Source: Elusimicrobiota bacterium
Lineage (GTDB): Bacteria; Elusimicrobiota; Elusimicrobia; F11
NCBI GenBank assembly: GCA_044221725.1
Contig: JBGAON010000002.1
Coordinates: 544,001-608,000 of the forward strand
Reading direction: 5' to 3'
Length of the DNA stretch: 64,000 nt
Positions within the stretch are counted from its first letter, which is position 1; the number at the start of each line of letters is the position of its first letter. A program made the translations under genes and the position numbers. The notes beneath the pieces were generated by a model that did not search any database, was not told the origin of the DNA, and saw nothing but the letters and a program-made list of their open reading frames with translations. This document shows positions 4,469 to 40,145 of the stretch, piece by piece.

Positions 4469-4502
4469 CGTGATACAATGCCCGACGTTACCGATGAATA
4501 TT

Positions 4503-4574
4503 GTGCTCGTGGTGAAATGGATATCATTAAGCCCTCCGAAGGCTTCGTTCTGGGTTCGAGTCCCAGCGAGCACG
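4503..4574 (+). tRNA. tRNA-Arg(CCG)
   Basis: Acceptor stem GTGCTCG/CGAGCAC; anticodon arm AAGCC-CTCCGAA-GGCTT; T arm CTGGG-TTCGAGT-CCCAG; no encoded CCA. Confidence 0.95.
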
Positions 4575-4581
4575 CCCAAGC

Positions 4582-4670
4582 CGTCATTCCCGCGAAAGCG
4601 GGAATCCAGGTTTCAAACTATTTTTAGAATCACGTTTACGAACTGGATTCCCGCTTTCGCGGGAATGACG
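4582..4670. repeat. REP/RPE-like element, family B
   Basis: Perfect 28-bp inverted arms CGTCATTCCCGCGAAAGCGGGAATCCAG / CTGGATTCCCGCTTTCGCGGGAATGACG. Confidence 0.92.
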
Positions 4671-5753
4671 ACTGTACTTTCTTTAATTGCTTGTTCAAAC
4701 CTTTCCGCCGCTCCCCGAAGCAACCTGTTGCTGTCCCACAAATCGAAAGTCTGGCGCGTTGAAGCGTCGGGGGTGGCCGAGTCATTGGGGGTGGAGTTTG
4801 AAGGGGGGAACGATGTCGATCATCAAGGCACATCGTCGCCGGTCGTTTCGCCCGATCAAACGTTGTTGGCCTACACAAAAGCGAATGATTTGTGGGTGAT
4901 GAATCTTGCGGATCAGTCGTCGAGTCGGCTCACCAAATACGGACGCGCCGAAACCGCGAACACGACCAGTGTTTATGTTTTGATCTCGGCGTGGTCCTCC
5001 GATAGCCGCCAAATTCTTTATTACGTCTCACATTCCGATGAGGATACGCTCGATGACAGCCAAGCGACACTCGATATTCCGTCAGCACCGTATGGATATC
5101 GCGTTTACGATGTTCTCACGAAAACCAACACGGCGATAAAATTCCCGGGAGAATTTCAGATATGGCTACCCGATGGAAGTTTTCTTTTGACATCGGCCGA
5201 AACCGATTTGTTTGACCAACATCTGTTGCGTTACCACGTGGGCGAAGATTTGCCCCAGCTCGTGACGAATCTACGCGGATGGTGGGGGCAAACCAGCGTG
5301 AGCCCCGACGCGCGCACGCTGCTCATTGCGTTCAGCCAACCGGTACCGTCATCAAAAGACATCAACATGAGCACGGATATTGGCGACACGCCGCAACTCT
5401 CAAGCCGAATTCTCAAATACAATCTGCGCACGGCGAACTTCGTTAACGTGTCGCCGGTTGGGTTCTGGTCCGAATATCAAATGCCAAGCTATTCACCGTC
5501 GGGCAAACGCATCGCGTACGTGCAGCAAAGCGAAATGGACAGCGCCGGTTTTGTGCACGGAAAACTTATCATCGATGGAAAACCCGTGATCGATTTGCCA
5601 CACGCGCCGTTCGAATATTATTGGATCGATGACAACACGCTGACGACCGTTGAAGACGACACGTTGCTCGTCATAAATGCGAACACGGGCCGGGAACTCG
5701 GCCACACGCATCTCGCGGCCGACGAACCGACGCTCACGGCCTCGCCGAAGTGA
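4665..5753 (+). CDS. Exported TolB-like/PD40 beta-propeller protein
   Basis: Repeated VSPDQ, WSSDS, WLPDG, VSPDA, YSPSG motifs; start moved to ATG 4665 because 4470 would read through the tRNA. Confidence 0.75.
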   Translation: MTTVLSLIACSNLSAAPRSNLLLSHKSKVWRVEASGVAESLGVEFEGGNDVDHQGTSSPVVSPDQTLLAYTKANDLWVMNLADQSSSRLTKYGRAETANTTSVYVLISAWSSDSRQILYYVSHSDEDTLDDSQATLDIPSAPYGYRVYDVLTKTNTAIKFPGEFQIWLPDGSFLLTSAETDLFDQHLLRYHVGEDLPQLVTNLRGWWGQTSVSPDARTLLIAFSQPVPSSKDINMSTDIGDTPQLSSRILKYNLRTANFVNVSPVGFWSEYQMPSYSPSGKRIAYVQQSEMDSAGFVHGKLIIDGKPVIDLPHAPFEYYWIDDNTLTTVEDDTLLVINANTGRELGHTHLAADEPTLTASPK

Positions 5754-29449: not shown

Positions 29450-30537
29450 GGGGTCAAGTCGCGACATCCGACATTTGTCCATTCAAAAGAGATTCCTCCA
29501 ACAACTTAATGATTGGCACATCGCAAAAATCATGGCGCGCTAAATATTTCTCGACGGCCTTATAGGAAACGCCGCCCAGCGCCATTCCAATCTGTTTGTA
29601 GCTAAGAAAGCAATTTTTGCGTAGGAAGTAGACGAGTGCCCATCTCTGTTCCGGGGAATTGGCGTCTTTGAAAGCGGCGTTGATCGTGTCTATAACGAAT
29701 GAAGGATTTAAAGCCTTCGTTTTTAGCAATTGGTTCTTTTGCGGGAGATCACGATTTATGTTTTGGCTCTTCAAATACGTTTCTCGAACCGACGCGATGA
29801 ACGATTTGATACCGAGAATGGCCGGCCATCTTTTCCGTGAGAGAATTTCAGCCAGCTCTTTGGGAACCCCTTGGAGAACGAACTGATGCAGGGCTTCTGT
29901 TTCGTTCGTCCGTTCACTCTGGAAATAGGAAAGAACGAGCGACCGCTCAAGCCAAGGAACAGCCTGTCTTGGATGAAGATAGTCCCAATGGCTGGAGTTG
30001 CCGTCAAGATCTGGGGAGGGATACAAACGCGCCTTCACACCATTGAGATGAATATAACGGACCAGCTCAAGAAAATACGATTCCTTTTGAACCAAAATTG
30101 ACTTGAACCGACCGCGAAAGATCGCGCCGTCGCGACCATGGCGCTTATTAAACCACTGTGTATAAACGCCATCGATGTGACGCATAGCCCGGCTTAAGTT
30201 TGGAACCGGTGTTTCGATCAACAAATGGTAGTGATTGTCCATCAAAGAGAACGCGTGGACGCGGATTTTCCATTGATCCACCGCCTCTCCGATCGCTTTC
30301 TTAAATTGAAATCGATCAGCATCCGCATCAAAAAAAATAGTGTTCCGGTTCGCTCCCCGATTCATGACGTGATAAAAAGCCCCCGGATATTCGATCCGTA
30401 AAGGTCGTGACATATACCACCAGCGAGGGAAAGATTCGGAGGGGAAGAATTTCTAGGAAGGGAAGAAACCGTCGACAATCAACGGTATCAAAATCGTGAG
30501 ACGAATTCACAAATGTCGGATGTCGCGACTTGACCCC
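29450..30537. mobile_element. RAYT/Y1-transposase unit bounded by perfect 29-bp inverted repeats
   Basis: GGGGTCAAGTCGCGACATCCGACATTTGT (29450-29478) and its exact reverse complement (30509-30537). Confidence 0.8.
29454..30413 (-). CDS. REP-associated tyrosine (Y1 HUH) transposase with C-terminal HTH-like extension
   Basis: RPLRIEYPGAFYHVMNRG, LMDNHYHLL (HUH), FRGRFKS, RYIHLN; SYKQIGMALGG HTH-like segment. Confidence 0.92.
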   Translation of the reverse strand: MSRPLRIEYPGAFYHVMNRGANRNTIFFDADADRFQFKKAIGEAVDQWKIRVHAFSLMDNHYHLLIETPVPNLSRAMRHIDGVYTQWFNKRHGRDGAIFRGRFKSILVQKESYFLELVRYIHLNGVKARLYPSPDLDGNSSHWDYLHPRQAVPWLERSLVLSYFQSERTNETEALHQFVLQGVPKELAEILSRKRWPAILGIKSFIASVRETYLKSQNINRDLPQKNQLLKTKALNPSFVIDTINAAFKDANSPEQRWALVYFLRKNCFLSYKQIGMALGGVSYKAVEKYLARHDFCDVPIIKLLEESLLNGQMSDVAT

Positions 30538-31444: not shown

Positions 31445-34400
31445 ATGAATCATCGGCGATTTGTCCGCGCGGCGGCCGCGGCACTTTCACTAATTTATCT
31501 CGCCACGAATTGTGCGTTCGCGTACAAATCCGAAGTGACCTTATGGGATGAACGGCGCCAATTTGCACAATTGCCAGCGCCTACAGGACCAACCGATTTT
31601 TCTCCACCGTTCCCGTCGCTTCCGAAAATCCACGCCTCTGTCCCACGTCGTTTTGAAAACAGCGTTTCAGGTCCCATCGCGGTCGGTCTTGTGCCACTTT
31701 TTCAGAGCTTATCCGCATCGTACGGTTCAATTCGCGACGTAAAGGTGCCCGCGCATTCGCGGACACCACGAACAATCATCCACATTCAAGATGTTCATGG
31801 AAATACCGAAGCGCAGCAAAACATCGGTCAAGCAATCCAACAGCTCATCAACGACAATCGCATCAACACCGTGGCGCTCGAAGGAGCGTTTGGTGTGATT
31901 GATCTCACCACAATCAGGAAATATTCCAACAAATCCTCTCGCGTGGTGGCCGATTACTTGTTGCGCGAAAAACGAATCTCGGGTCCGATTTATACGGCAT
32001 TTACCAGCGAACAACCGATTCCCACGTTTGTCGGCGTGGACGATGCTGAACACTACGTATTGAACGTCAACGCCTACCGGGAGTCCTCGCGTCAACGACC
32101 AAAGATAAAAAAGCAGCTCGAGCCCCTTAAAAACAATGTGCGGAACCGAACGGCCGAAGTTTTTAACGCTGCGCTACTCAAATTCGATAGCAGCGTTCAA
32201 GCTTTTCGAGAAGAGCGCCTGCCGTTGGGCGCGTACGCTCAACTTCTCGCTCAACAGACTCCGAAGCCGTCGCCAACATTGAAGCTGTTTGTTCAAGCGC
32301 TCGAGTTGGAGAACACGATCAATTTTTCTGCCGTTGAAGCCGAACGAAGTCACCTTCTTTCCGAATTGCTGCCGAAGCTGTCGCAAACCGCTCGTGAGAA
32401 ATTGGTGGCCGCCAGCGTCGCCTATCGCACCGAAAATCTTTCGCATGCTGATTTTTATGGGCACTTAAAAAATCTGTGCCAAGCGAACGGCATCCGCCTC
32501 ACGCGTTATCCAGCGATGAATTCTTATTTGCGGTACGTTATCGCGACCGATCGCATCAATACCGAAGATTTGTTCCGTGAGCTCAAGCAAACCGAAAAAA
32601 TGATTTATTCGTCGCTCGCAAAAACAACGGAGGAAAAAGACCTCGTCGCGTGGTCGGCCCGCGTCTCCCTCACCGAAAAGTTGTTGGATTTTTCGCTAAC
32701 AAGAGAAGAATGGAACGATTACAAAAGCGAGGTTCACTCCTTGTACCCGGTGGCGCGGGAAGACCTTCTCCGCTTTGAGCAGTTTTACTCAGAAGCCGAA
32801 AAACGAGACGAGCGTATGACGGCAAATCTGTGCCGCGCAATGAATGAAGTTCAAGGAAAGGATCGCAACGAAAACGCCGCGGCGATTCTTGTGACGGGGG
32901 GATTTCATTCCTCTGGCATCGACCAACGTCTGGTGGCGGCGGGTTACACGGTAATCTCTTTTGTTCCAACGGTGACAAAATCAGATTCAAAAAACGGCTC
33001 GGCGTATTTGAGCGTGTTCACCCAACAGAAGACACCGCTCGATCAACTGTTCGCGGGGGAAAAACTCTTCTTGGCCGAAGCACCGATGACCACCAACGGG
33101 TTGCTGCTCGAGAAACTTTTTGAATTGCAGCAACAATCGAATTTCCGAGAGGGGCGGTTCGTTGTTCCCTACGATTCGAAAAGAGAACTGATCGGACAAT
33201 TTGGGCCAGCGGGAAAATCAATCACGTCGGTGACCCTGTCGCATGCACCGTGGCTGGCACGGTTATCGCCCCAAAATTTGAATCGATGGATAACGAAACG
33301 GTTGCGCTTCGTTTCGTGGCGAGCAAATATCCAGTGGAAGAAGCGCGTCTTTCGCCGCCGCGTTAATGAGATCGTCAAAAAATTTCCGCAATTCGACTTA
33401 GCGTTCGTGCCACATCTATTGCCGCCGTTGCTTGATCAAATACTGAAGAGATTCCCGCGGAAGGGGCCAACCTTTTTGGATGACCTATCCGGTGGAACGC
33501 ATGGGTTTGGACATTTTCTCGATGTCGTGGAAATTTCTTTGCGAATGCTCGCTCGCTCACCAAACGGAGAAAAGGCCGAATTAAAACCGGTCGTCTTGGG
33601 CGCGTTTTTGCACGATGTCGGGCATTTGCTCGATGAAGCGCGGCAAGAGGAAGTAGGAGTCGGATTGGCTGACAAATTGATGCGTAACTTTTCGGTCACC
33701 GACATCAGCCTCGAGGACCGCGAACACGTCAAAGGAATAATTCGGTCTCATCGGAAAACGTCGGGCCCGCCGCCCGTTACATCAGCGGAGAAGCTTGTCG
33801 CCGACGCGGATCGTCTGAGCGCCAACCCGGACCGCATGATGCGCGTCAATCGGGATTTTGACCGGCGTTTCTTGACCAAGACAGATTTCCACAAACTGGT
33901 TCGTCTTCTGCTTCAGAACAAGAACAACTGGTACCGCGATAGCAATACGGTCATGCATTTGTTGAAAAGTCTCGTCATCAATACAAACCCGGCAAAATAT
34001 CAAACCACCGTTGGGAAAATGATGGCGCGCGACTTGTTCTATGTCTATTTGGGACAAATTCGGAAAATCTTTGAAAGCAGTTTTCCTGATCCAAAAACAT
34101 TGGAGACATCGTGGTTTTCGGTAATTCGATTTCTTCGCGTTTGGGGCAAGGAGGGCGGGTGGTTACCGGCCGAGATCAAGAACACTCTTCTCAATCAGCC
34201 GAACAGACGCTCCGCCTCTGCGCTAACCAAAGTTGCATCGCGAGCGAACGAAGCATCGTCGAACAAATCAACACTTCAATCGTGGTCGGGCACCGCGGGT
34301 GGTTGGGGCCTATACGGTTGGCTCATGCCGTCCATCGAAGAATCCCTGCGCTGGTACGCCATTGCGAGCGGCGAAATTTGGGGAGGGGCAATCTACGTGG

Positions 34401-37400
34401 GCATCCACGCGTTTCTGCATTTCTATGTCGACGTGTACGCGGCGCGCGGAGAACCGCTTAACTTCCGCTCGGCCGTCGGTTATCTCTCATCCCGAAATTT
34501 TTGGGTTCGCGTCCTTTTCTCTGCTGCGTTTTCTATTCCGTACCTGCTTCTGTTTTCCGCCGATCACGCTTTTGTTTTTGCGGTCTGTGCCCACGTCGTG
34601 AACAACGCGTTTGTTCATCCTTTTATCCGATCCGTTGGCATCTCCTGGCCGTTGATGTCGGTCATCGACCCCGCTGAATTCGACGGCTACGAACCGCCAA
34701 CCATTATTCTTGAAATTTACGCGGACATGCTCACGAAATACTATGAAGCCGAACACATTGGCCCGGCCACCAGCAATCGCGCAACAACGATCCTGAGGCG
34801 AGTGCGATTCGCAAGCGAGCTGGCGCAGACCGCCAAATTTGAATACGCGGCCGTTGAAGAATTGCATCGTCTGTTTTACTTGGCACGCTACGCGGAAGAT
34901 GCGAGCGGGAAAACCATTGATGCCCCGGAGCGACGAAAAATCAAAGCCGCTATTTTAAAGGCGCTGGCCTCGTTACCCGATCACCTTCACGACGCCATTC
35001 GATTAATCGATAGGACCGCGACGTCTTTTTCGGAGGAAGCAACGTTCACCGCCGCCGCGCTCGTCGGCGCCAAGATGTCAAACATTCCGGAGTCCGAACG
35101 AATTCTCACGGAGCTGTTTGATCGTGCAAAACGAAAAAAACTGCACGTTGATGTTCCGCTCGATCTGTTGCAGGAGATGATTAAGATCTCTCAATTGGGG
35201 GACATTATCGAACAGAGGTCGCTTCAGCTCTCGCCCAGCGCGCGGCCCGATGCAATGGCGAGCTTAACAAGAGAACGCGTGCACCAACAGCGTTGGGAGT
35301 CGGCGGTTGAATCGATGAACCAAGCCATGGGCTCCACATCCGATATGTTTTTCACGAGCATCCTTGAATTGGCGAAGCATCTTGAATACCTGCCGCTGGT
35401 GCTCAAATTCGTCGAACGCGTGCCCGACACCGACGATCATCTGCGCGAACAAAAGATCAAATCGCTGGTGTTGCTTGGGCACCTTTACAAAAAACGGGAT
35501 GACGAACGGACCGCGCAGCGACTTTGGAGAAACGCGTTCATCTTGTCGCAACGGAATGCTCAGACAAGCACGAATGCCTTTCGTCCAGAAGTTTTATGGA
35601 TCAGTCTCTTTTTTCCGATCATGCGCCATCACGCGATTCGATTTGGTGGATTGGAACGTTCAACGGTTTTAAAGACCGGAAGCAATATTCTGCTTACCAT
35701 CGATCCGGCGTTTCCAGGCTGGGCAGAGTTGGCCGGTGCAATTTTTCATGAGCGTGTTCGAGCTGGTGAGTTCAAATCCGCCATCGCTTTTCTTAACGCG
35801 CTGGAAAAACAACTCATCGACAGGCTGCCGATCGTTGTGGACCGGGGCCTTAGCAAACGCGACGAGAGCAGACTTATTGAGATACAGGGTGCCATCGACG
35901 AGCGCAGCGATACGCTGTACAGAAAAACGTTGTTTGGTGCCGGTCGCACCGCCGTTGCAAGTCACCACGACGACTGGGCTCGCATTCTCTTGGAGCTGGC
36001 GCGGGAACACATCCCGGACGACGCCGGCGTCGAAGCCGAAGAAATTGCGCTTGCCTATGCGCGCCGAGGAAATTTCAGGGAAGCAAAGGAATACGCGCTT
36101 CTGTCGGCGACACTGTTTCGCGATAGCGTTGAGTACCGTGATTTCGAAGACTTGGGCCATCGACGTCCGGTGTCCTCTCGAGCGCTTTTGGCCATCTCGA
36201 ATATGGAACTGCGCCGTGTGCAAGTCGAGGATCCCGAGGCTATTGTTCGAATCAAAGACAATATTTTTACGGCAGCCAGCATTGGACTTGATGCTCAGGA
36301 TCTCCGGAATCTTTTAAAAATGATCGACGAGAATCCGATTTTTTCCGAAGACGAACTGGTTCTGCTGGCCCAAACGATCAACGAAAACATTCAAGGACAA
36401 CAGCTGCGTCATTACGTGAGTGACGAATCTTCCTTGACTGAATTTTTGGAGTTTCTGCGCAGCGCCTTTCCATTCATCGGCCTGCACCAATTCGTTGAGG
36501 AAAAACTAACGCCGGTGGCCACAATATTTTTTGGCGATGCGGCGAGCAATTCAACGACAATTGCCGCGCGCATAAAAAAGTGGTTCTTGGGGACCGCCGT
36601 GCTTCTCGCGCGTTGGTTCACGCGCGGCGGGCGGCCAAACTCCATTTCCTTCTACCGCGATCTGCTGAACGGCATGGTTCCCGCACAGGCCGCGCCTCGC
36701 GCGATGAAATCCATGCGAATAGAAGCCGCTGTGCTCGCCGGAATTCCAGGCATCGCGTTTGCGGCGCTTCCACCAGTGTACGCGCAAACCACCGCGCTTC
36801 TGTTTACGATTCTGCTCGTGATCTTTGCGAACCTGCATGCCAAAGCGCTGCGAAAACTTCTGGCGCGCCGGAATCAAACGCGCGGCCCCACCGCAAGTGT
36901 CGCCATCCCGAACGAATTCATCTTGTTTGTCCATTTTGCATTTGGTTTTTCGCCGTATTTTCTGGCTTATTTCACGTATGTCGTCACCGCTTCGCCGCTG
37001 TCCACTTTGCTGTTTTTGGCGGCCGTCGTTTGGCATTACGCGTTTGATATTCGCGAAATCTACGGTTCACCATCTGAAATGAAAGCTCTTTTTGCGAAAG
37101 ACGTGCGCTACATGTCCGTGCTCGGCCGTCCGACCGCCGGGAAAGGAACGTTAATCGCGAAATTCCGAAACGAAATAAACACAAATCTGCCCCCGGGTAT
37201 CTATTACGAAGCTATCGGATGGGGAGAGGTGCGGCGCGCACTGAAGGAAAGAATTCTTGCCGAACGTGAGGGACGGGAAGCCGATTCCGCCATTGTTGGA
37301 AGATGGGGCAACGTTGCGATTCCGCAAACGATCAAACAATTTATCGCCGCGGATTTGCCTTTTCCACAGGAAGAGCTTGTCCGAATGCTCAACAGCATCT

Positions 37401-40024
37401 TGGACCAAGAACCGTTCAAGAGCGCGCACGGCATTATTTTTGACAACTTCCCCCATGGAGTTGCGAGCCAAGAAACGCTGACGAACGGATTGTTGTTTCA
37501 CCGTGGGCACGCCGTGAAAATGGATTTGTATTTGCTGATGCACATTTCCAAGGATATCGCTCGCGAACGGGCACGGTTGCGACGCCGCGCGGACGACACG
37601 ATGGAAATTTTAAACAAGCGGTTGATCAAGTTTTTCTCTTCCTGTTTGCCGGTGATTCAATCCATCCAAAACAATTTTAACCACATCAATTTGAACGCAA
37701 CCGTTTCCGCCGCCGACGTGTATGCCGATTTCAGCAACAAACTTCGGCTTAAACTCAAATGGCCAGAGTTTCCCTATCGGCCGTGGGAGAGAACAAAACG
37801 CGTCCGCGTTCAACCCGACCTCAGCTTTGACGTCGAACGGGTGGACAATATCTTTACGGAAGGGAACAGGTTTTTGCTGGAACGGATGAAACCGGAGTCG
37901 CGAAAGGCGTTCGTGATTGCGCAAGGCGAACACTGGAGAAATATCGCCGAACGCTACTTAAGAAGCGTTTATGCGAACGCAGAAATTCCGCAAATAATGG
38001 TATTGCCCAAAGAAATACCGGCGGATCAGACAGAGGCATGGGTTCGACGTGTATTTGAAGCGGCGGACGAAGCCAACATCAACCGTAAAGATATTTTCGT
38101 TCTTGTCGGCAACGAAAAATTTATGAAACTGACGAGCCGCGCCGCGGCCGAGTTTCATCGCGGGATTGCCACGATCCAAATACCGACCACCAAAGCCGCC
38201 GCCATGCGCAAACCCGAACGTACCGGCGACGGTGACCGATGGTTCCTGTCTTCTCCGGAAGCCGTGCTGATCGACAAAACAATTCTTCAATCGGTCGATG
38301 CAATTACCGTCGGAAGATCGGAGCGACAGCCTGATTCAAGTTACGATGTCACGATGACGCGCGGCATATTCGATAAACACAACGACTTGTTAAATAAACG
38401 TTTGCGCAATGGAAAAGACGGCCGCCGATTCATTGTCGCGATCGATTCGTTCGTTGGAAAAGAAGTGATCGCTCAAGCGCGCCAAAAATTTGAACAGATC
38501 CTCAAAGCCCGCGGCCAACCGGCGTCGGACCTCGTTATTCTGGAGGTGGCCGGTGGCGAGAGCATCAAGAACGAGCGCGCCGCTGATTTCGTGAACGAGG
38601 TTCATCGACAGGCCCGGCAGGCGAATCTCACAAAACGTGACGTGGTTGTTGCCATCGGCGGAGGCGCGGTCATTGACGCTGTGGGCTTTGCCGCCAGCAC
38701 GTTTGACGGCGGCATTCCGCTGTTTCGAATTCCAACGACATTGCTCTCCGCTGTGGATGGTGGCGTCGGTACGAAGAACGCCGTAAATTTTAACGGTAAG
38801 AAAAATTTCCAAGGCGTTTTTGCTCCACCCGAAGTTGTCTATGTGGATCCGTTGCTCTTGAAAAAACTGCCGCGACGAATTTATCTCTCCGGCATCGCTG
38901 AGATGATCAAGGTATCGCTTATTAAAGACGCGCATTACTTCGCGCTGCTCGAAAACCATCTCGACGATCTTGTAAACCGGCGTTTCAACGACACCTCCCA
39001 TGCCGAGGAGTTGATGTGGCGTTCCATCGTGCTTCACCTCGAACAAATCGAAACCGATCCGTACGAAACCAAACTGGCGCGCCCGCTTGACCTTGGTCAT
39101 GAGCACGGCCACCGACTTGAGTTTCTCACGAATTTCGCTTTGCTTCATGGCGAAGGCGTCACGATTGGCGTTGCGATCGATGCGGTCATTTCGTGGTTGC
39201 GAAATCTTTTGAGCAACGAAGAGCTGTTGCGAATCCTCAAAATGATTGAACGCGCCGAGCTGCCCATTTTCCATGAATTAGCGACCGTCGAGAACTTGGT
39301 GCCGGGTCTGAACGACTTCGCGAAACATCTGGGCGGCGAGCCGACGTTCTCGCTGATCGGCGGCATCGGAAACAAAAAAGATGTTCATGCGATCTGGCCA
39401 AAAGAGTTGGACCATGCGTTGGATTATCTTCGCGCGCGCATCGCGCGGCCTCTCGGCGCGGAGCGCTCAAACACGCCACCGACAACTCCACCTCAAACGG
39501 TGATCGAAGCGCTGCTGTACGATCGACCGTTGAACCTTGGGGTGGGGGAGAAGTATGTTTCGGTGTCGGACACTCTCTCGGCCCAATCGGCCAAAACGAA
39601 TTCGGCCACCATCATTGTTGTGGATGAAACGACGACGCCTTTCCTGACGAGGAGTGTGATGAAGGCGTTGACGCAAGATTCCGAGACAAACAATCACAAA
39701 TTGATTCTCATCGTTAAACCGGGAACGCGCTTACCAAAAGCCGTGCCATTGAATGCGCCCAATCTCGCTGTACGTCACGTGGATGTGTTCTCTAACAGCG
39801 GCGGGCGACCGGTGATCGAGTGGAAAATGATTAGCAAACTGCTTGGCGACGATCTCAAGTCGAAGGCCTCTGTGGATCTCTATCTTCCAAATCTTCCGAT
39901 CAACTGCGAACACCGGCCGGAAACAGACTGGGACCATCTCAATCTGTTTTTTGTTGGCAAGGAAGACATGGCTCCGATGCTTTCGTTCCACGAATTCATG
40001 CGGCGACTCGCAAGCTCTGCGTAA
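31445..40024 (+). CDS. Giant exported multidomain protein (2859 aa): conserved N-domain, HD, CPBP-like TM x2, helical/TPR-like, adenylate-kinase-like, DHQS/sugar-phosphate cyclase
   Basis: Signal peptide; HIQDVH..EAQ.NI/VALEGA/LVTGGFH; H..LHD..DADR; EESLR/HAFLH/HVVNN; GRPTAGKGT/RADD; IGGGAVID/PTTLL..VD/RPLDLGH/LLHGE. Confidence 0.85.
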   Translation: MNHRRFVRAAAAALSLIYLATNCAFAYKSEVTLWDERRQFAQLPAPTGPTDFSPPFPSLPKIHASVPRRFENSVSGPIAVGLVPLFQSLSASYGSIRDVKVPAHSRTPRTIIHIQDVHGNTEAQQNIGQAIQQLINDNRINTVALEGAFGVIDLTTIRKYSNKSSRVVADYLLREKRISGPIYTAFTSEQPIPTFVGVDDAEHYVLNVNAYRESSRQRPKIKKQLEPLKNNVRNRTAEVFNAALLKFDSSVQAFREERLPLGAYAQLLAQQTPKPSPTLKLFVQALELENTINFSAVEAERSHLLSELLPKLSQTAREKLVAASVAYRTENLSHADFYGHLKNLCQANGIRLTRYPAMNSYLRYVIATDRINTEDLFRELKQTEKMIYSSLAKTTEEKDLVAWSARVSLTEKLLDFSLTREEWNDYKSEVHSLYPVAREDLLRFEQFYSEAEKRDERMTANLCRAMNEVQGKDRNENAAAILVTGGFHSSGIDQRLVAAGYTVISFVPTVTKSDSKNGSAYLSVFTQQKTPLDQLFAGEKLFLAEAPMTTNGLLLEKLFELQQQSNFREGRFVVPYDSKRELIGQFGPAGKSITSVTLSHAPWLARLSPQNLNRWITKRLRFVSWRANIQWKKRVFRRRVNEIVKKFPQFDLAFVPHLLPPLLDQILKRFPRKGPTFLDDLSGGTHGFGHFLDVVEISLRMLARSPNGEKAELKPVVLGAFLHDVGHLLDEARQEEVGVGLADKLMRNFSVTDISLEDREHVKGIIRSHRKTSGPPPVTSAEKLVADADRLSANPDRMMRVNRDFDRRFLTKTDFHKLVRLLLQNKNNWYRDSNTVMHLLKSLVINTNPAKYQTTVGKMMARDLFYVYLGQIRKIFESSFPDPKTLETSWFSVIRFLRVWGKEGGWLPAEIKNTLLNQPNRRSASALTKVASRANEASSNKSTLQSWSGTAGGWGLYGWLMPSIEESLRWYAIASGEIWGGAIYVGIHAFLHFYVDVYAARGEPLNFRSAVGYLSSRNFWVRVLFSAAFSIPYLLLFSADHAFVFAVCAHVVNNAFVHPFIRSVGISWPLMSVIDPAEFDGYEPPTIILEIYADMLTKYYEAEHIGPATSNRATTILRRVRFASELAQTAKFEYAAVEELHRLFYLARYAEDASGKTIDAPERRKIKAAILKALASLPDHLHDAIRLIDRTATSFSEEATFTAAALVGAKMSNIPESERILTELFDRAKRKKLHVDVPLDLLQEMIKISQLGDIIEQRSLQLSPSARPDAMASLTRERVHQQRWESAVESMNQAMGSTSDMFFTSILELAKHLEYLPLVLKFVERVPDTDDHLREQKIKSLVLLGHLYKKRDDERTAQRLWRNAFILSQRNAQTSTNAFRPEVLWISLFFPIMRHHAIRFGGLERSTVLKTGSNILLTIDPAFPGWAELAGAIFHERVRAGEFKSAIAFLNALEKQLIDRLPIVVDRGLSKRDESRLIEIQGAIDERSDTLYRKTLFGAGRTAVASHHDDWARILLELAREHIPDDAGVEAEEIALAYARRGNFREAKEYALLSATLFRDSVEYRDFEDLGHRRPVSSRALLAISNMELRRVQVEDPEAIVRIKDNIFTAASIGLDAQDLRNLLKMIDENPIFSEDELVLLAQTINENIQGQQLRHYVSDESSLTEFLEFLRSAFPFIGLHQFVEEKLTPVATIFFGDAASNSTTIAARIKKWFLGTAVLLARWFTRGGRPNSISFYRDLLNGMVPAQAAPRAMKSMRIEAAVLAGIPGIAFAALPPVYAQTTALLFTILLVIFANLHAKALRKLLARRNQTRGPTASVAIPNEFILFVHFAFGFSPYFLAYFTYVVTASPLSTLLFLAAVVWHYAFDIREIYGSPSEMKALFAKDVRYMSVLGRPTAGKGTLIAKFRNEINTNLPPGIYYEAIGWGEVRRALKERILAEREGREADSAIVGRWGNVAIPQTIKQFIAADLPFPQEELVRMLNSILDQEPFKSAHGIIFDNFPHGVASQETLTNGLLFHRGHAVKMDLYLLMHISKDIARERARLRRRADDTMEILNKRLIKFFSSCLPVIQSIQNNFNHINLNATVSAADVYADFSNKLRLKLKWPEFPYRPWERTKRVRVQPDLSFDVERVDNIFTEGNRFLLERMKPESRKAFVIAQGEHWRNIAERYLRSVYANAEIPQIMVLPKEIPADQTEAWVRRVFEAADEANINRKDIFVLVGNEKFMKLTSRAAAEFHRGIATIQIPTTKAAAMRKPERTGDGDRWFLSSPEAVLIDKTILQSVDAITVGRSERQPDSSYDVTMTRGIFDKHNDLLNKRLRNGKDGRRFIVAIDSFVGKEVIAQARQKFEQILKARGQPASDLVILEVAGGESIKNERAADFVNEVHRQARQANLTKRDVVVAIGGGAVIDAVGFAASTFDGGIPLFRIPTTLLSAVDGGVGTKNAVNFNGKKNFQGVFAPPEVVYVDPLLLKKLPRRIYLSGIAEMIKVSLIKDAHYFALLENHLDDLVNRRFNDTSHAEELMWRSIVLHLEQIETDPYETKLARPLDLGHEHGHRLEFLTNFALLHGEGVTIGVAIDAVISWLRNLLSNEELLRILKMIERAELPIFHELATVENLVPGLNDFAKHLGGEPTFSLIGGIGNKKDVHAIWPKELDHALDYLRARIARPLGAERSNTPPTTPPQTVIEALLYDRPLNLGVGEKYVSVSDTLSAQSAKTNSATIIVVDETTTPFLTRSVMKALTQDSETNNHKLILIVKPGTRLPKAVPLNAPNLAVRHVDVFSNSGGRPVIEWKMISKLLGDDLKSKASVDLYLPNLPINCEHRPETDWDHLNLFFVGKEDMAPMLSFHEFMRRLASSA

Positions 40025-40061: not shown

Positions 40062-40132
40062 GCGGGTGTCGTTCAGTGGTAGGACGAAAGCTTCCCAAGC
40101 TTTAGATGTGGGTTCGATTCCCATCACCCGCT
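40062..40132 (+). tRNA. tRNA-Gly(CCC)
   Basis: Acceptor GCGGGTG/CACCCGC; anticodon arm AAAGC-TTCCCAA-GCTTT; T loop TTCGATT; no encoded CCA. Confidence 0.95.
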
Positions 40133-40145
40133 CGCCTGGAACGAA

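Follow-up and report, generated by a model that had tools for sequence, protein, structure and literature searches.

The stretch of DNA analysed here (the window) comprises 64,000 nucleotides of an Elusimicrobiota bacterium (GenBank assembly GCA_044221725.1, contig JBGAON010000002.1, positions 544,001 to 608,000 of the forward strand). At 31445..40024 lies one open reading frame (ORF) encoding a protein of 2859 amino acids (aa), one of 26 paralogues of the genome that share an N-terminal domain, hereafter the head. Positions refer to the window, and features lie on its forward (+) strand unless stated otherwise. A reading made without database searches (the sequence-only reading) had described an exported chain of cytoplasmic-type enzymes behind a conserved N-terminal domain. 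The single ORF and its domain order were confirmed, and every motif quoted in that reading was located (QDVH at aa 115, LEGA at 145, GVDD at 197, GGFH at 485, GRPTAGKGT at 1894, DNFP at 2000 and RADD at 2048). Pfam matches on the ORF were HD (aa 688-793, E 2e-7), ADK (aa 1962-2074, E 4e-6), DHQ_synthase in two stretches (E 7e-38) and DHQS_C. Its relatives agree with the placement of the organism, four of four named loci belonging to Elusimicrobiota.

The misassembly against which the sequence-only reading had cautioned was not seen. Contigs of a run from the possible source sample covered 30/30 bins of the ORF, and contigs of an independent study 28/30, with no listed difference inside the ORF. 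The longest supporting contig extended over 36508-38395, and the whole ORF was spanned by none of the contigs compared. Insertions at 36660-36661 were present in one low-depth contig of the first run, and one contig joint with a 20-letter side was listed in the comparison. Codon-position GC was uniform over the whole ORF. The pairing of this head with this tandem cyclase recurs in another protein (P0151; 47% identity over 607 aa), and one paralogue has module 2 plus the kinase in common with the 2859-aa protein; given that these combinations recur, the junctions did not arise through misassembly. The architecture as such is secure. A horizontally acquired island was rejected, since GC and codon pattern agree with the genome. 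RNA runs of one study contained pieces of the ORF; they included no silent control and are not taken as evidence of transcription.

The gene is one member of a polymorphic family in which a fixed grammar surrounds swappable enzymes. The grammar consists of a leader, a head of TIKI fold, repeated units of cargo and CPBP-like membrane module, and a C-terminal helix ending in Ala. The profile search proposed in the sequence-only reading was run and returned many paralogues with differing cargo, so the N-terminal domain is neither single-copy nor invariant in its setting. In the 2.82-Mb genome the 26 head-bearing ORFs (775-8862 aa) occupy 6.4% of the DNA. Head matches were obtained in 22/41 related genomes, many with tens of them, and in 51/151 genomes of the phylum (32/44 of one family, 0/45 of another). 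A library search with the head gave 9,745 clusters at 50% identity. Named relatives belong to Elusimicrobiota, including Endomicrobiaceae, Endomicrobium and Ruminimicrobiellum, and also to Omnitrophota. The Endomicrobiaceae include protist symbionts (PMC11257099).

Cassette swapping was measured in 160 proteins of more than 1500 aa by comparing each with the partner nearest in its head. The shared body amounted to at most 5% in 123 proteins, to between 5 and 50% in 30 and to more than half in 7, and the 2859-aa protein shared no body with its ten closest heads. One pair has heads that are 86% identical; its two cassette indels both adjoin a module. Modules account for 4.4% of body residues and were overlapped by 93/346 shared body segments, an overlap also expected from homology among modules alone. 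A cargo family above the Pfam cut-off was present in 12/25 other paralogues: 2-hydroxyacid dehydrogenase, adenylate kinase, hexokinase with GH18, PP2C with FHA, WD40 (two), protein kinase with sigma70, beta-CASP nuclease, glycogen synthase, phosphorylase, GGDEF and PRK/uridine kinase. Among 19 relatives scanned (of 150, the number returned), Pfam cargo at 1e-5 was found in 5 and none in 14. Endomicrobia-type relatives carry PGM, PGI, PGK, PPDK and UGPase. Cargo such as hexokinase, glycogen synthase, phosphorylase, PGM, PGI, PGK, PPDK, sigma70, PP2C and GGDEF requires ATP, NAD, S-adenosylmethionine (SAM) or RNA polymerase.

Two further giants of the same genome were observed. An 18,006-aa ORF (L027-L030, G000:C2:219210-273227) has a similar leader, gave no Pfam match in four pieces and has neither head nor Ala tail; it adjoins a cluster of four paralogues and two pilus-type ATPases. 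An 8369-aa protein (L031-L032, G000:C5:256705-281811) has a similar leader and an Ala tail, with no TIKI head and no module match.

The head lies at 31703..33088 and was assigned by model, fold search and conservation as a TIKI/EreA/ChaN-fold domain with a helical insert of about 270 aa. Its model, built from 25 sequences, had a mean predicted local distance difference test (pLDDT) score of 85. The top five structural matches among 48,161 chains were ChaN, HopBA1, EreC and two succinoglycan-biosynthesis (Bcr) proteins, at Z 8.8-8.2 and root-mean-square deviation (rmsd) 3.3-5.5 over 155-187 residues; the next, unrelated match scored 7.9. These matches have the superfamily's core of parallel beta-sheet, as does the head. 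Foldseek against the PDB returned nothing below E 0.001, with Bcr135 ranked first, and PDB sequence searches with the head alignment and the module alignment gave noise only. PF04187 was weak in 7/25 paralogues and above its cut-off in one.

A candidate active site of the head consists of D116, H118, E146, R454 and H488, conserved in the family as D in 358/359, H in 359/359, E in 361/362, R in 361/361 and the His of GGFH in 362/362. The site is of 2His/2Glu type with a conserved basic residue; acid-x-His, a Glu 28 residues on, a distal His and an invariant Arg are shared with RRSP and Bcr135 (PMC6254334), an equivalence judged from motif order and spacing, not superposition. The same parallel beta-sheet core is found in ChaN, EreC, Bcr135/136, HopBA1 and the RRSP and PMT C2 domains. 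Unlike those members, the head has Asp as first acid, bears the long insert and recurs as a constant part in thousands of polyproteins. The modelled fold and the conserved residues suggest that it is probably a hydrolase with activity. The sequence-only reading had cast this domain as a carrier. The constant N-terminal domain and the variable cargo were borne out by the 26 paralogues and their mosaicism, but the fold is that of a hydrolase and not a known translocator fold. Nor need the head be the carrier, because head-only proteins exist and the headless 8369-aa giant has both leader and Ala tail. The head-only proteins (L125, L126; 567-620 aa, two other families) have the W-x-x-R leader motif, and the Ala tail was absent in 3/3; they are candidates for the ancestral stand-alone enzyme. 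A head-tail complex prediction scored 0.00 and was uninformative either way.

Four-helix hydrophobic blocks occur at aa ~956-1065 and ~1755-1872. Module 1 (34310..34669) is a CPBP/Rce1-like core with E965-E966-x-x-R969, FxxxH992 and H1050xxxN1054, and is followed by W-P-L-M-S (aa 1068). Module 2 (36707..37060) is a core of the same type with a single E1760, FxxxH1798 and H1864xxxD1868. Both therefore carry the catalytic-type Glu, FxxxH and HxxxN/D motifs, and the full EExxxR is not kept: module 1 reads EExxR and module 2 has one Glu. A first, conservative module profile gave 84 domains. The iterated profile gave 169 units in 106/226 proteins, against 2 in reversed decoys, and within the genome matched head-bearing ORFs only. 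In the module alignment the two His positions are kept in 89% and 96%, N/D in 97% and the aligned Glu in 70%; all four catalytic-type positions are aligned in 106/169 modules, and a Glu lies 22-52 residues ahead of the first His in 140/144. These residues are retained at a mean column identity of about 10%. EE was present in 22/144. Canonical EExxFR modules occur in Endomicrobia-type relatives, namely PPDK-bearing members.

Evidence for kinship with CPBP peptidases came from several searches. PF02517 matched weakly in 8/70 modules (best E 1.1e-4), no other Pfam family matched more than 1, and a precomputed PF02517 is attached to one relative (P0345). In the Pfam scan PF02517 matched neither the 2859-aa protein nor anything in the whole genome. 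NCBIfam gave two single weak CPBP matches amid scattered others. The named Atlas neighbours of the module were all CPBP (score 0.87), which is a lead only. The module model had four membrane helices (pLDDT 80), and its top match among the 48,161 chains was SpdC at Z 6.6 (low for helical bundles), rmsd 3.8 over 112 aligned residues, with the next at 5.6; Foldseek against the PDB returned nothing below E 0.001. SpdC is an Rce1 homologue (PMC12067869), and the CPBP domain corresponds to TM4-TM7 (PMC11980579). Median spacings in the modules are 35 (E-H) and 58 (H-H), compared with 33 and 54 in MmRce1 (PMC12067869). Relative to CPBP/Rce1 peptidases (PF02517; MmRce1 4CAD, MroQ, MrtX, SpdC 6U0O), the modules appear to have the same four-helix TM4-TM7 core; the E, FxxxH and HxxxN motifs agree in their spacing and lie near the cytoplasmic side. 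They differ in being stripped to four helices and repeated in frame inside a polyprotein, and in mostly lacking the second Glu and the Arg.

The orientation of the modules was judged from charge and homology. Both termini of eight-helix MmRce1 are luminal (PMC12067869), so its TM4-TM7 core starts and ends in the cytosol. In 131 non-redundant modules the two short loops contain 1-3% Lys or Arg, and the flanks and middle loop 9-19%. This predicted topology puts the cargo on a cytoplasmic face and agrees with that of the Rce1 core. Three motifs accompany the modules: P.A[SAT] within 40 aa after HxxxN in 24/131 (4.6 expected), GG plus two aliphatics ahead of the Glu in 12/96 (1.7 expected) and R[AG]PP within the middle loop of 19/131 (0.7 expected); these expectations treat kin as independent. 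The two membrane modules described in the sequence-only reading are thus present, and on conserved residues and spacing they appear to be protease-like cores rather than plain anchors. That they cut is about as likely as not. Endomicrobia-type relatives (for example P0396, P0309 and P0297) also seem to have a shorter form of the module, in which some 14 residues separate Glu from His. One ORF of another genome (L052, G007:C31) has four closely similar modules, each followed by a K-W-G-V-L-x-M linker and related to module 1.

The first cargo of the 2859-aa protein is an HD-domain phosphohydrolase (33485..34048; PDB 2pq7, E 2.6e-7) with its H..HD..D motif intact. The second, an orphan of 643 aa (34700..36628; aa 1086-1728), had been labelled TPR-like. 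That label found no support: Pfam, NCBIfam and the PDB gave nothing better than E 0.88, and no match was found in 120 other genomes of the class. An adenylate/NMP-kinase-like cargo of short-LID type follows module 2 (37103..37759); the P-loop and RxDD are retained, and the Arg of DG[FY]PR is replaced by His. The last cargo comprises a half sugar-phosphate cyclase, N-terminal domain only (37790..38314), which keeps the Arg of the H-R-G motif (R2239), and a complete cyclase (38327..39448). In the complete copy the conserved Arg is Gly (G2422), where Arg stands in 103/103 readable stand-alone relatives (16 unread), and the histidine metal-site motifs align with ValA. Cargo here duplicates the housekeeping Adk and AroB encoded separately in the genome.

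The half-then-complete arrangement had been recognised earlier as a cyclase of the DHQS family. AroB identity was rejected (TIGR01357 at 239.7 bits against a cut-off of 305; position in the tree apart from AroB/AROM). By PDB, NCBIfam and tree the complete copy is EboD/ValA-like: it passes NF004852 (PRK06203) with 335.9 bits against 333, and its best PDB match was ValA 4p53 (E 2.6e-45, versus 1.9e-36 for DHQS). The tree was a quick one of 74 rows that used every second stand-alone match and no reference EboD. In it the cyclase and eight relatives (seven giant proteins, two of them Omnitrophica) form one side of a branch with support 84; cyclases of giant proteins thus cluster across two phyla, and their sister group is stand-alone relatives that include Bacteroidota proteins. 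No ebo operon is present at the ORF locus. The EboD label, a prediction, rests in part on PMC5133447; EboD-type enzymes have been proposed to cyclise sedoheptulose-7-phosphate (PMC5133447). A single-chain pseudo-dimer, in which the half copy supplies the lost Arg, fits here but was set aside, as two other tandem forms keep the Arg in the full copy. The idea supposes that this Arg acts in trans.

The leader (31445..31558; aa 1-26) is of Sec/signal peptidase I (SPase I) type, with A-F-A at the predicted cut, and is followed by an E-x-x-x-W-x-E-R-R motif (W34). The signal peptide claimed in the sequence-only reading obeys Sec/SPase I rules family-wide: of 151 leaders, 147 have a small residue at -3, 130 have A/G/S at -1 and 136 have at least two basic residues in the n-region. 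W-x-E-R follows the leader in 173/226 proteins. Tat export was rejected; a twin-arginine-like motif was present in just 8/151 leaders, though TatC is present.

At the other end, the C-terminal domain (39512..40021) is shared weakly with seven other paralogues and closes with a family tail helix at 39968-40021 whose last residue is Ala. The tail profile was built from family tails, so that its tail matches are not independent. Terminal Ala was counted in 21/26 paralogues and 45/54 relatives with a stop codon, against 144/1,508 other genes, and in 94/120 Endomicrobia-type matches (some partial), 78 of them ending in AA; the Omnitrophica protein P0155 also ends in an Ala tail. The tag encoded by the transfer-messenger RNA (tmRNA) of the genome ends in LAA. 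Like the ssrA tag and other C-terminal Ala degrons, which are read by ClpXP and Tsp, the tail has non-polar residues and a terminal Ala; unlike ssrA it is a gene-encoded amphipathic helix with Arg at -7 and often S or Q at -2. Expanded Clp/Tsp sets were rejected, the genome having one S41 peptidase, three Clp ATPases and two M41 proteases. It also encodes 11 PilB/PilT-type ATPases. Long secreted proteins on contigs C3, C4 and C5 of the same genome (G000) share another tail, of G-x-Y ... K-M-A-V-L-K type, which we liken presumptively to a type IX-style C-terminal domain.

Leader and modules make conflicting demands. Helices were predicted with a simple hydrophobicity caller, which under-calls (typically two of the four module helices). 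No helix was predicted within 260 aa after the head in 60/211 proteins, the 2859-aa protein among them, where the linker is polar and basic. Paralogues consisting of leader, head and kinase, or of leader, head and a methyltransferase-like domain, had no predicted helix at all. As no helix separates head from first cargo, the leader and the modules imply opposite faces of the producer's membrane, and an exported head would take along cargo that requires ATP or SAM. The sequence-only reading had remarked on the oddity of cytoplasmic-type enzymes in an exported protein; leader, helix-free linker and module charges uphold the paradox. The cytoplasm of a second cell reconciles an exported head with modules that want cytoplasm on the cargo side.

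We tentatively favour, at somewhat less than an even chance, an exported self-processing enzyme array that inserts into the membrane of a partner cell and releases its cargo to that cell's cytoplasm. The proposal reads export, cleavage and delivery into what was observed: the grammar, the expansion of paralogues, the swapping of cassettes, the folds and the conserved residues of catalytic type. The leader would direct the chain out of the producer's cytoplasm via Sec. When a partner (a prey cell, a host microbe or a protist) is contacted, the modules would insert into its membrane from the cytoplasmic side, because module charges and Rce1 homology require that orientation. They would then cleave in cis, close to the P-x-A-S-type motif by which they are often followed, and so release the HD hydrolase, the orphan domain, the NMP kinase and the cyclase, which could divert nucleotides and sugar phosphates of the partner. 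The Ala tail may be a handle recognised by an AAA+ motor or a C-terminal protease, which would drive or police the process, and the head may act as a peptidase or esterase, either where the cells touch or on its own chain.

Several findings weigh against this proposal. The Z scores of head (8.8) and module (6.6) are within the range for which the tool warns of common arrangements. EExx(x)R/K is kept in only 14/144 modules, and module 2 has a single Glu and Asp for Asn. The modules hold the four-helix core only, without the other helices that wall the Rce1 cavity; non-catalytic CPBP proteins such as CflP exist. A module was not detected in 120/226 proteins, and the putative cut motif follows a minority of modules only. 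Neither a dedicated translocon nor a second SecA was found in the genome, which has one SecA, and within three ORFs the 26 paralogues had no shared neighbour gene. The PGM+PGI architecture is stable across many Endomicrobia-type relatives, unlike that of conflict effectors. Finally, behind the head one or more helices are predicted in 151/211 proteins, which fits an ordinary protein of the producer's membrane.

That last count leads to the strongest alternative, in which a periplasmic sensor or hydrolase head signals across the producer's own membrane, the cargo resides in the producer's cytoplasm, tethered by the modules, and is freed or switched by regulated intramembrane proteolysis, and the Ala tail works as an ssrA-like degron through which the final fragment is removed. 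No unknown translocon would be required, module charges and Rce1 topology would be satisfied by any cytoplasm, the sigma70, kinase, PP2C, FHA and GGDEF cargo suits signalling, and the AA ends of 78/120 Endomicrobia-type matches parallel the LAA of the tmRNA tag. It fails to explain how cargo could stay inside when no helix lies between head and cargo, here and in 59 other proteins, and when several paralogues have none, so that the exported head takes the cargo with it. Rapid cassette turnover and duplicated housekeeping enzymes are likewise hard to square with a role in the producer's own metabolism, and we regard this alternative as possible but somewhat unlikely.

A surface or periplasmic multi-enzyme coat, retained on the producer's envelope or on vesicles, handling metabolites and polymers from attached, lysing prey and using the modules as anchors or sortase-like trimmers, is judged unlikely. 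It would agree with the Sec-type leader, the GH18 cargo of one paralogue, the interpretation of Omnitrophota giants by West-Roberts et al. (10.1101/2023.11.21.568195), the finding that a giant protein is more abundant in Velamenicoccus cells that are attached (10.1101/2023.11.21.568195; PMC10066038) and the sorting of surface proteins by a CPBP myxosortase (PMC11980579). The modules, however, would have to insert against the positive-inside rule, and it is hard to see what use sigma factors, GGDEF, beta-CASP nuclease and protein phosphatases would have outside a cytoplasm. Quite improbable is a variable surface antigen on which only head and tail matter and mostly decayed pseudo-enzymes serve as binding, decoy or spacer modules: the lost kinase Arg, the Gly of the complete cyclase, the half cyclase and the 14/19 relatives without Pfam cargo would suit it, but the HD motif, the P-loop and the histidine motifs of the cyclase are intact, the cyclase passes its NCBIfam cut-off, and module His, Glu and Asn persist despite low column identity.

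Among known systems, the nearest are the giant multi-enzyme proteins of Omnitrophota (10.1101/2023.11.21.568195; PMC10066038; 10.1101/2025.01.14.632903; PMC12057145), described as 'Archaeovorins' (10.1101/2023.11.21.568195) and as a 'multi-enzyme metabolic' class (10.64898/2026.06.07.730766). In these descriptions the N-terminal regions are left undefined, and C39/S8 peptidases are credited with the cleavage. Huge proteins without annotation are abundant in Elusimicrobiota (PMC11573180). The present family resembles the Omnitrophota giants in its signal peptide, membrane helices and chained cytoplasm-type enzymes (glycolytic, glycogen, methyltransferase), and Omnitrophica P0155 carries the family's head, a related cyclase and the Ala tail. 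It differs in size and number, with 26 proteins of 1-9 kaa per genome as opposed to one or few of >10 kaa, and in the Pfam scan the 2859-aa protein had none of the SecA-DEAD, C39 or S8 domains of Archaeovorins (at least 30,000 aa). CPBP/CAAX, Tiki, TraB and ChaN were not found in the main texts of both Omnitrophota preprints by term search, and in a literature search linking CPBP or TIKI to these phyla (subscription papers and preprint supplements lying outside its scope) no description of head, modules or tail was found. The class of giant proteins is known; the grammar on which this family is built is undescribed.

Polymorphic toxin systems likewise join a constant N-terminal part to variable cargo, and PrsW-type, CPBP-related peptidases have been proposed to process and export them (PMC3482391). 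The present chains differ in having several modules and cargos each, metabolic or regulatory cargo instead of a single C-terminal nuclease, and no immunity genes or orphan cassettes seen near the paralogues. MARTX toxins also carry several swappable effector domains on one chain. Their built-in protease frees the effectors inside another cell. Unlike MARTX (PMC6254334), the family has no RTX repeats or cysteine protease domain among its Pfam matches and instead has a Sec-type leader and one membrane-protease-like unit per junction. The CAGE complex, described in a preprint, was considered and appears unrelated. A search of the genome for an ATP/ADP translocase gave no match, yet the control likewise matched nowhere.

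The ORF stands alone ahead of a tRNA-Gly(CCC) gene (40062..40133), which begins 38 bp past the stop codon and is outside the system. About 1 kb upstream, an ORF resembling REP-associated tyrosine transposases (29454-30413, reverse strand; NF047646, E 7e-15, below cut-off) lies amid small secreted-looking ORFs in a slightly lower-GC stretch. Elsewhere in the window a tRNA-Arg identified by ARAGORN (4502-4578) overlaps the start of a 427-aa ORF call (4470-5753), the true start of which probably lies later than called. Within three ORFs of the 26 paralogues, where crude gene calls gave mostly housekeeping-like neighbours, no common family was found beyond a transposase (3 loci) and two pairs, and no common immunity-like gene or orphan cassette. 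The transposase family, which we take to be IS30-like, lies directly upstream of three paralogues (G000:C1:244467, C2:188164, C3:448408-449372), and two copies are identical. Two short paralogues (G000:C2:130474-132300, C3:314495-316387) are each followed by a homologous protein of about 620 aa (36% identity); no other gene directly downstream was seen to be shared among paralogues.

Taken at its widest, the proposal describes a delivery system of Elusimicrobiota, Endomicrobia and Omnitrophota in which Sec-exported polyproteins would be threaded into a partner by a C-terminal Ala handle, stitched into its membrane by repeated minimal Rce1-like proteases and self-cut into a set of metabolic and regulatory enzymes able to reprogramme its carbon and nucleotide metabolism, the modules acting as cross-phylum recombination joints; in this breadth it is doubtful. 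The protein is real and polymorphic, and the proposed mechanism is directly testable. The cited papers leave open why small-genome bacteria related to the Planctomycetes-Verrucomicrobia-Chlamydiae (PVC) group devote several per cent of their DNA to multi-enzyme giants, whether the giants stay whole, and at which face of which membrane their enzymes work. The grammar yields small, expressible pieces for such tests: a candidate protease of 120 residues, for which catalytic residues and a putative cut motif can be named, a hydrolase-like head of 460 residues, the leader and an 18-residue tail. If self-cleaving, the four-helix CPBP core would amount to an intramembrane protease of minimal size, with possible use in protein engineering. 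As the family reaches into the Endomicrobiaceae, which include a cultured species, its biology may be testable in culture.

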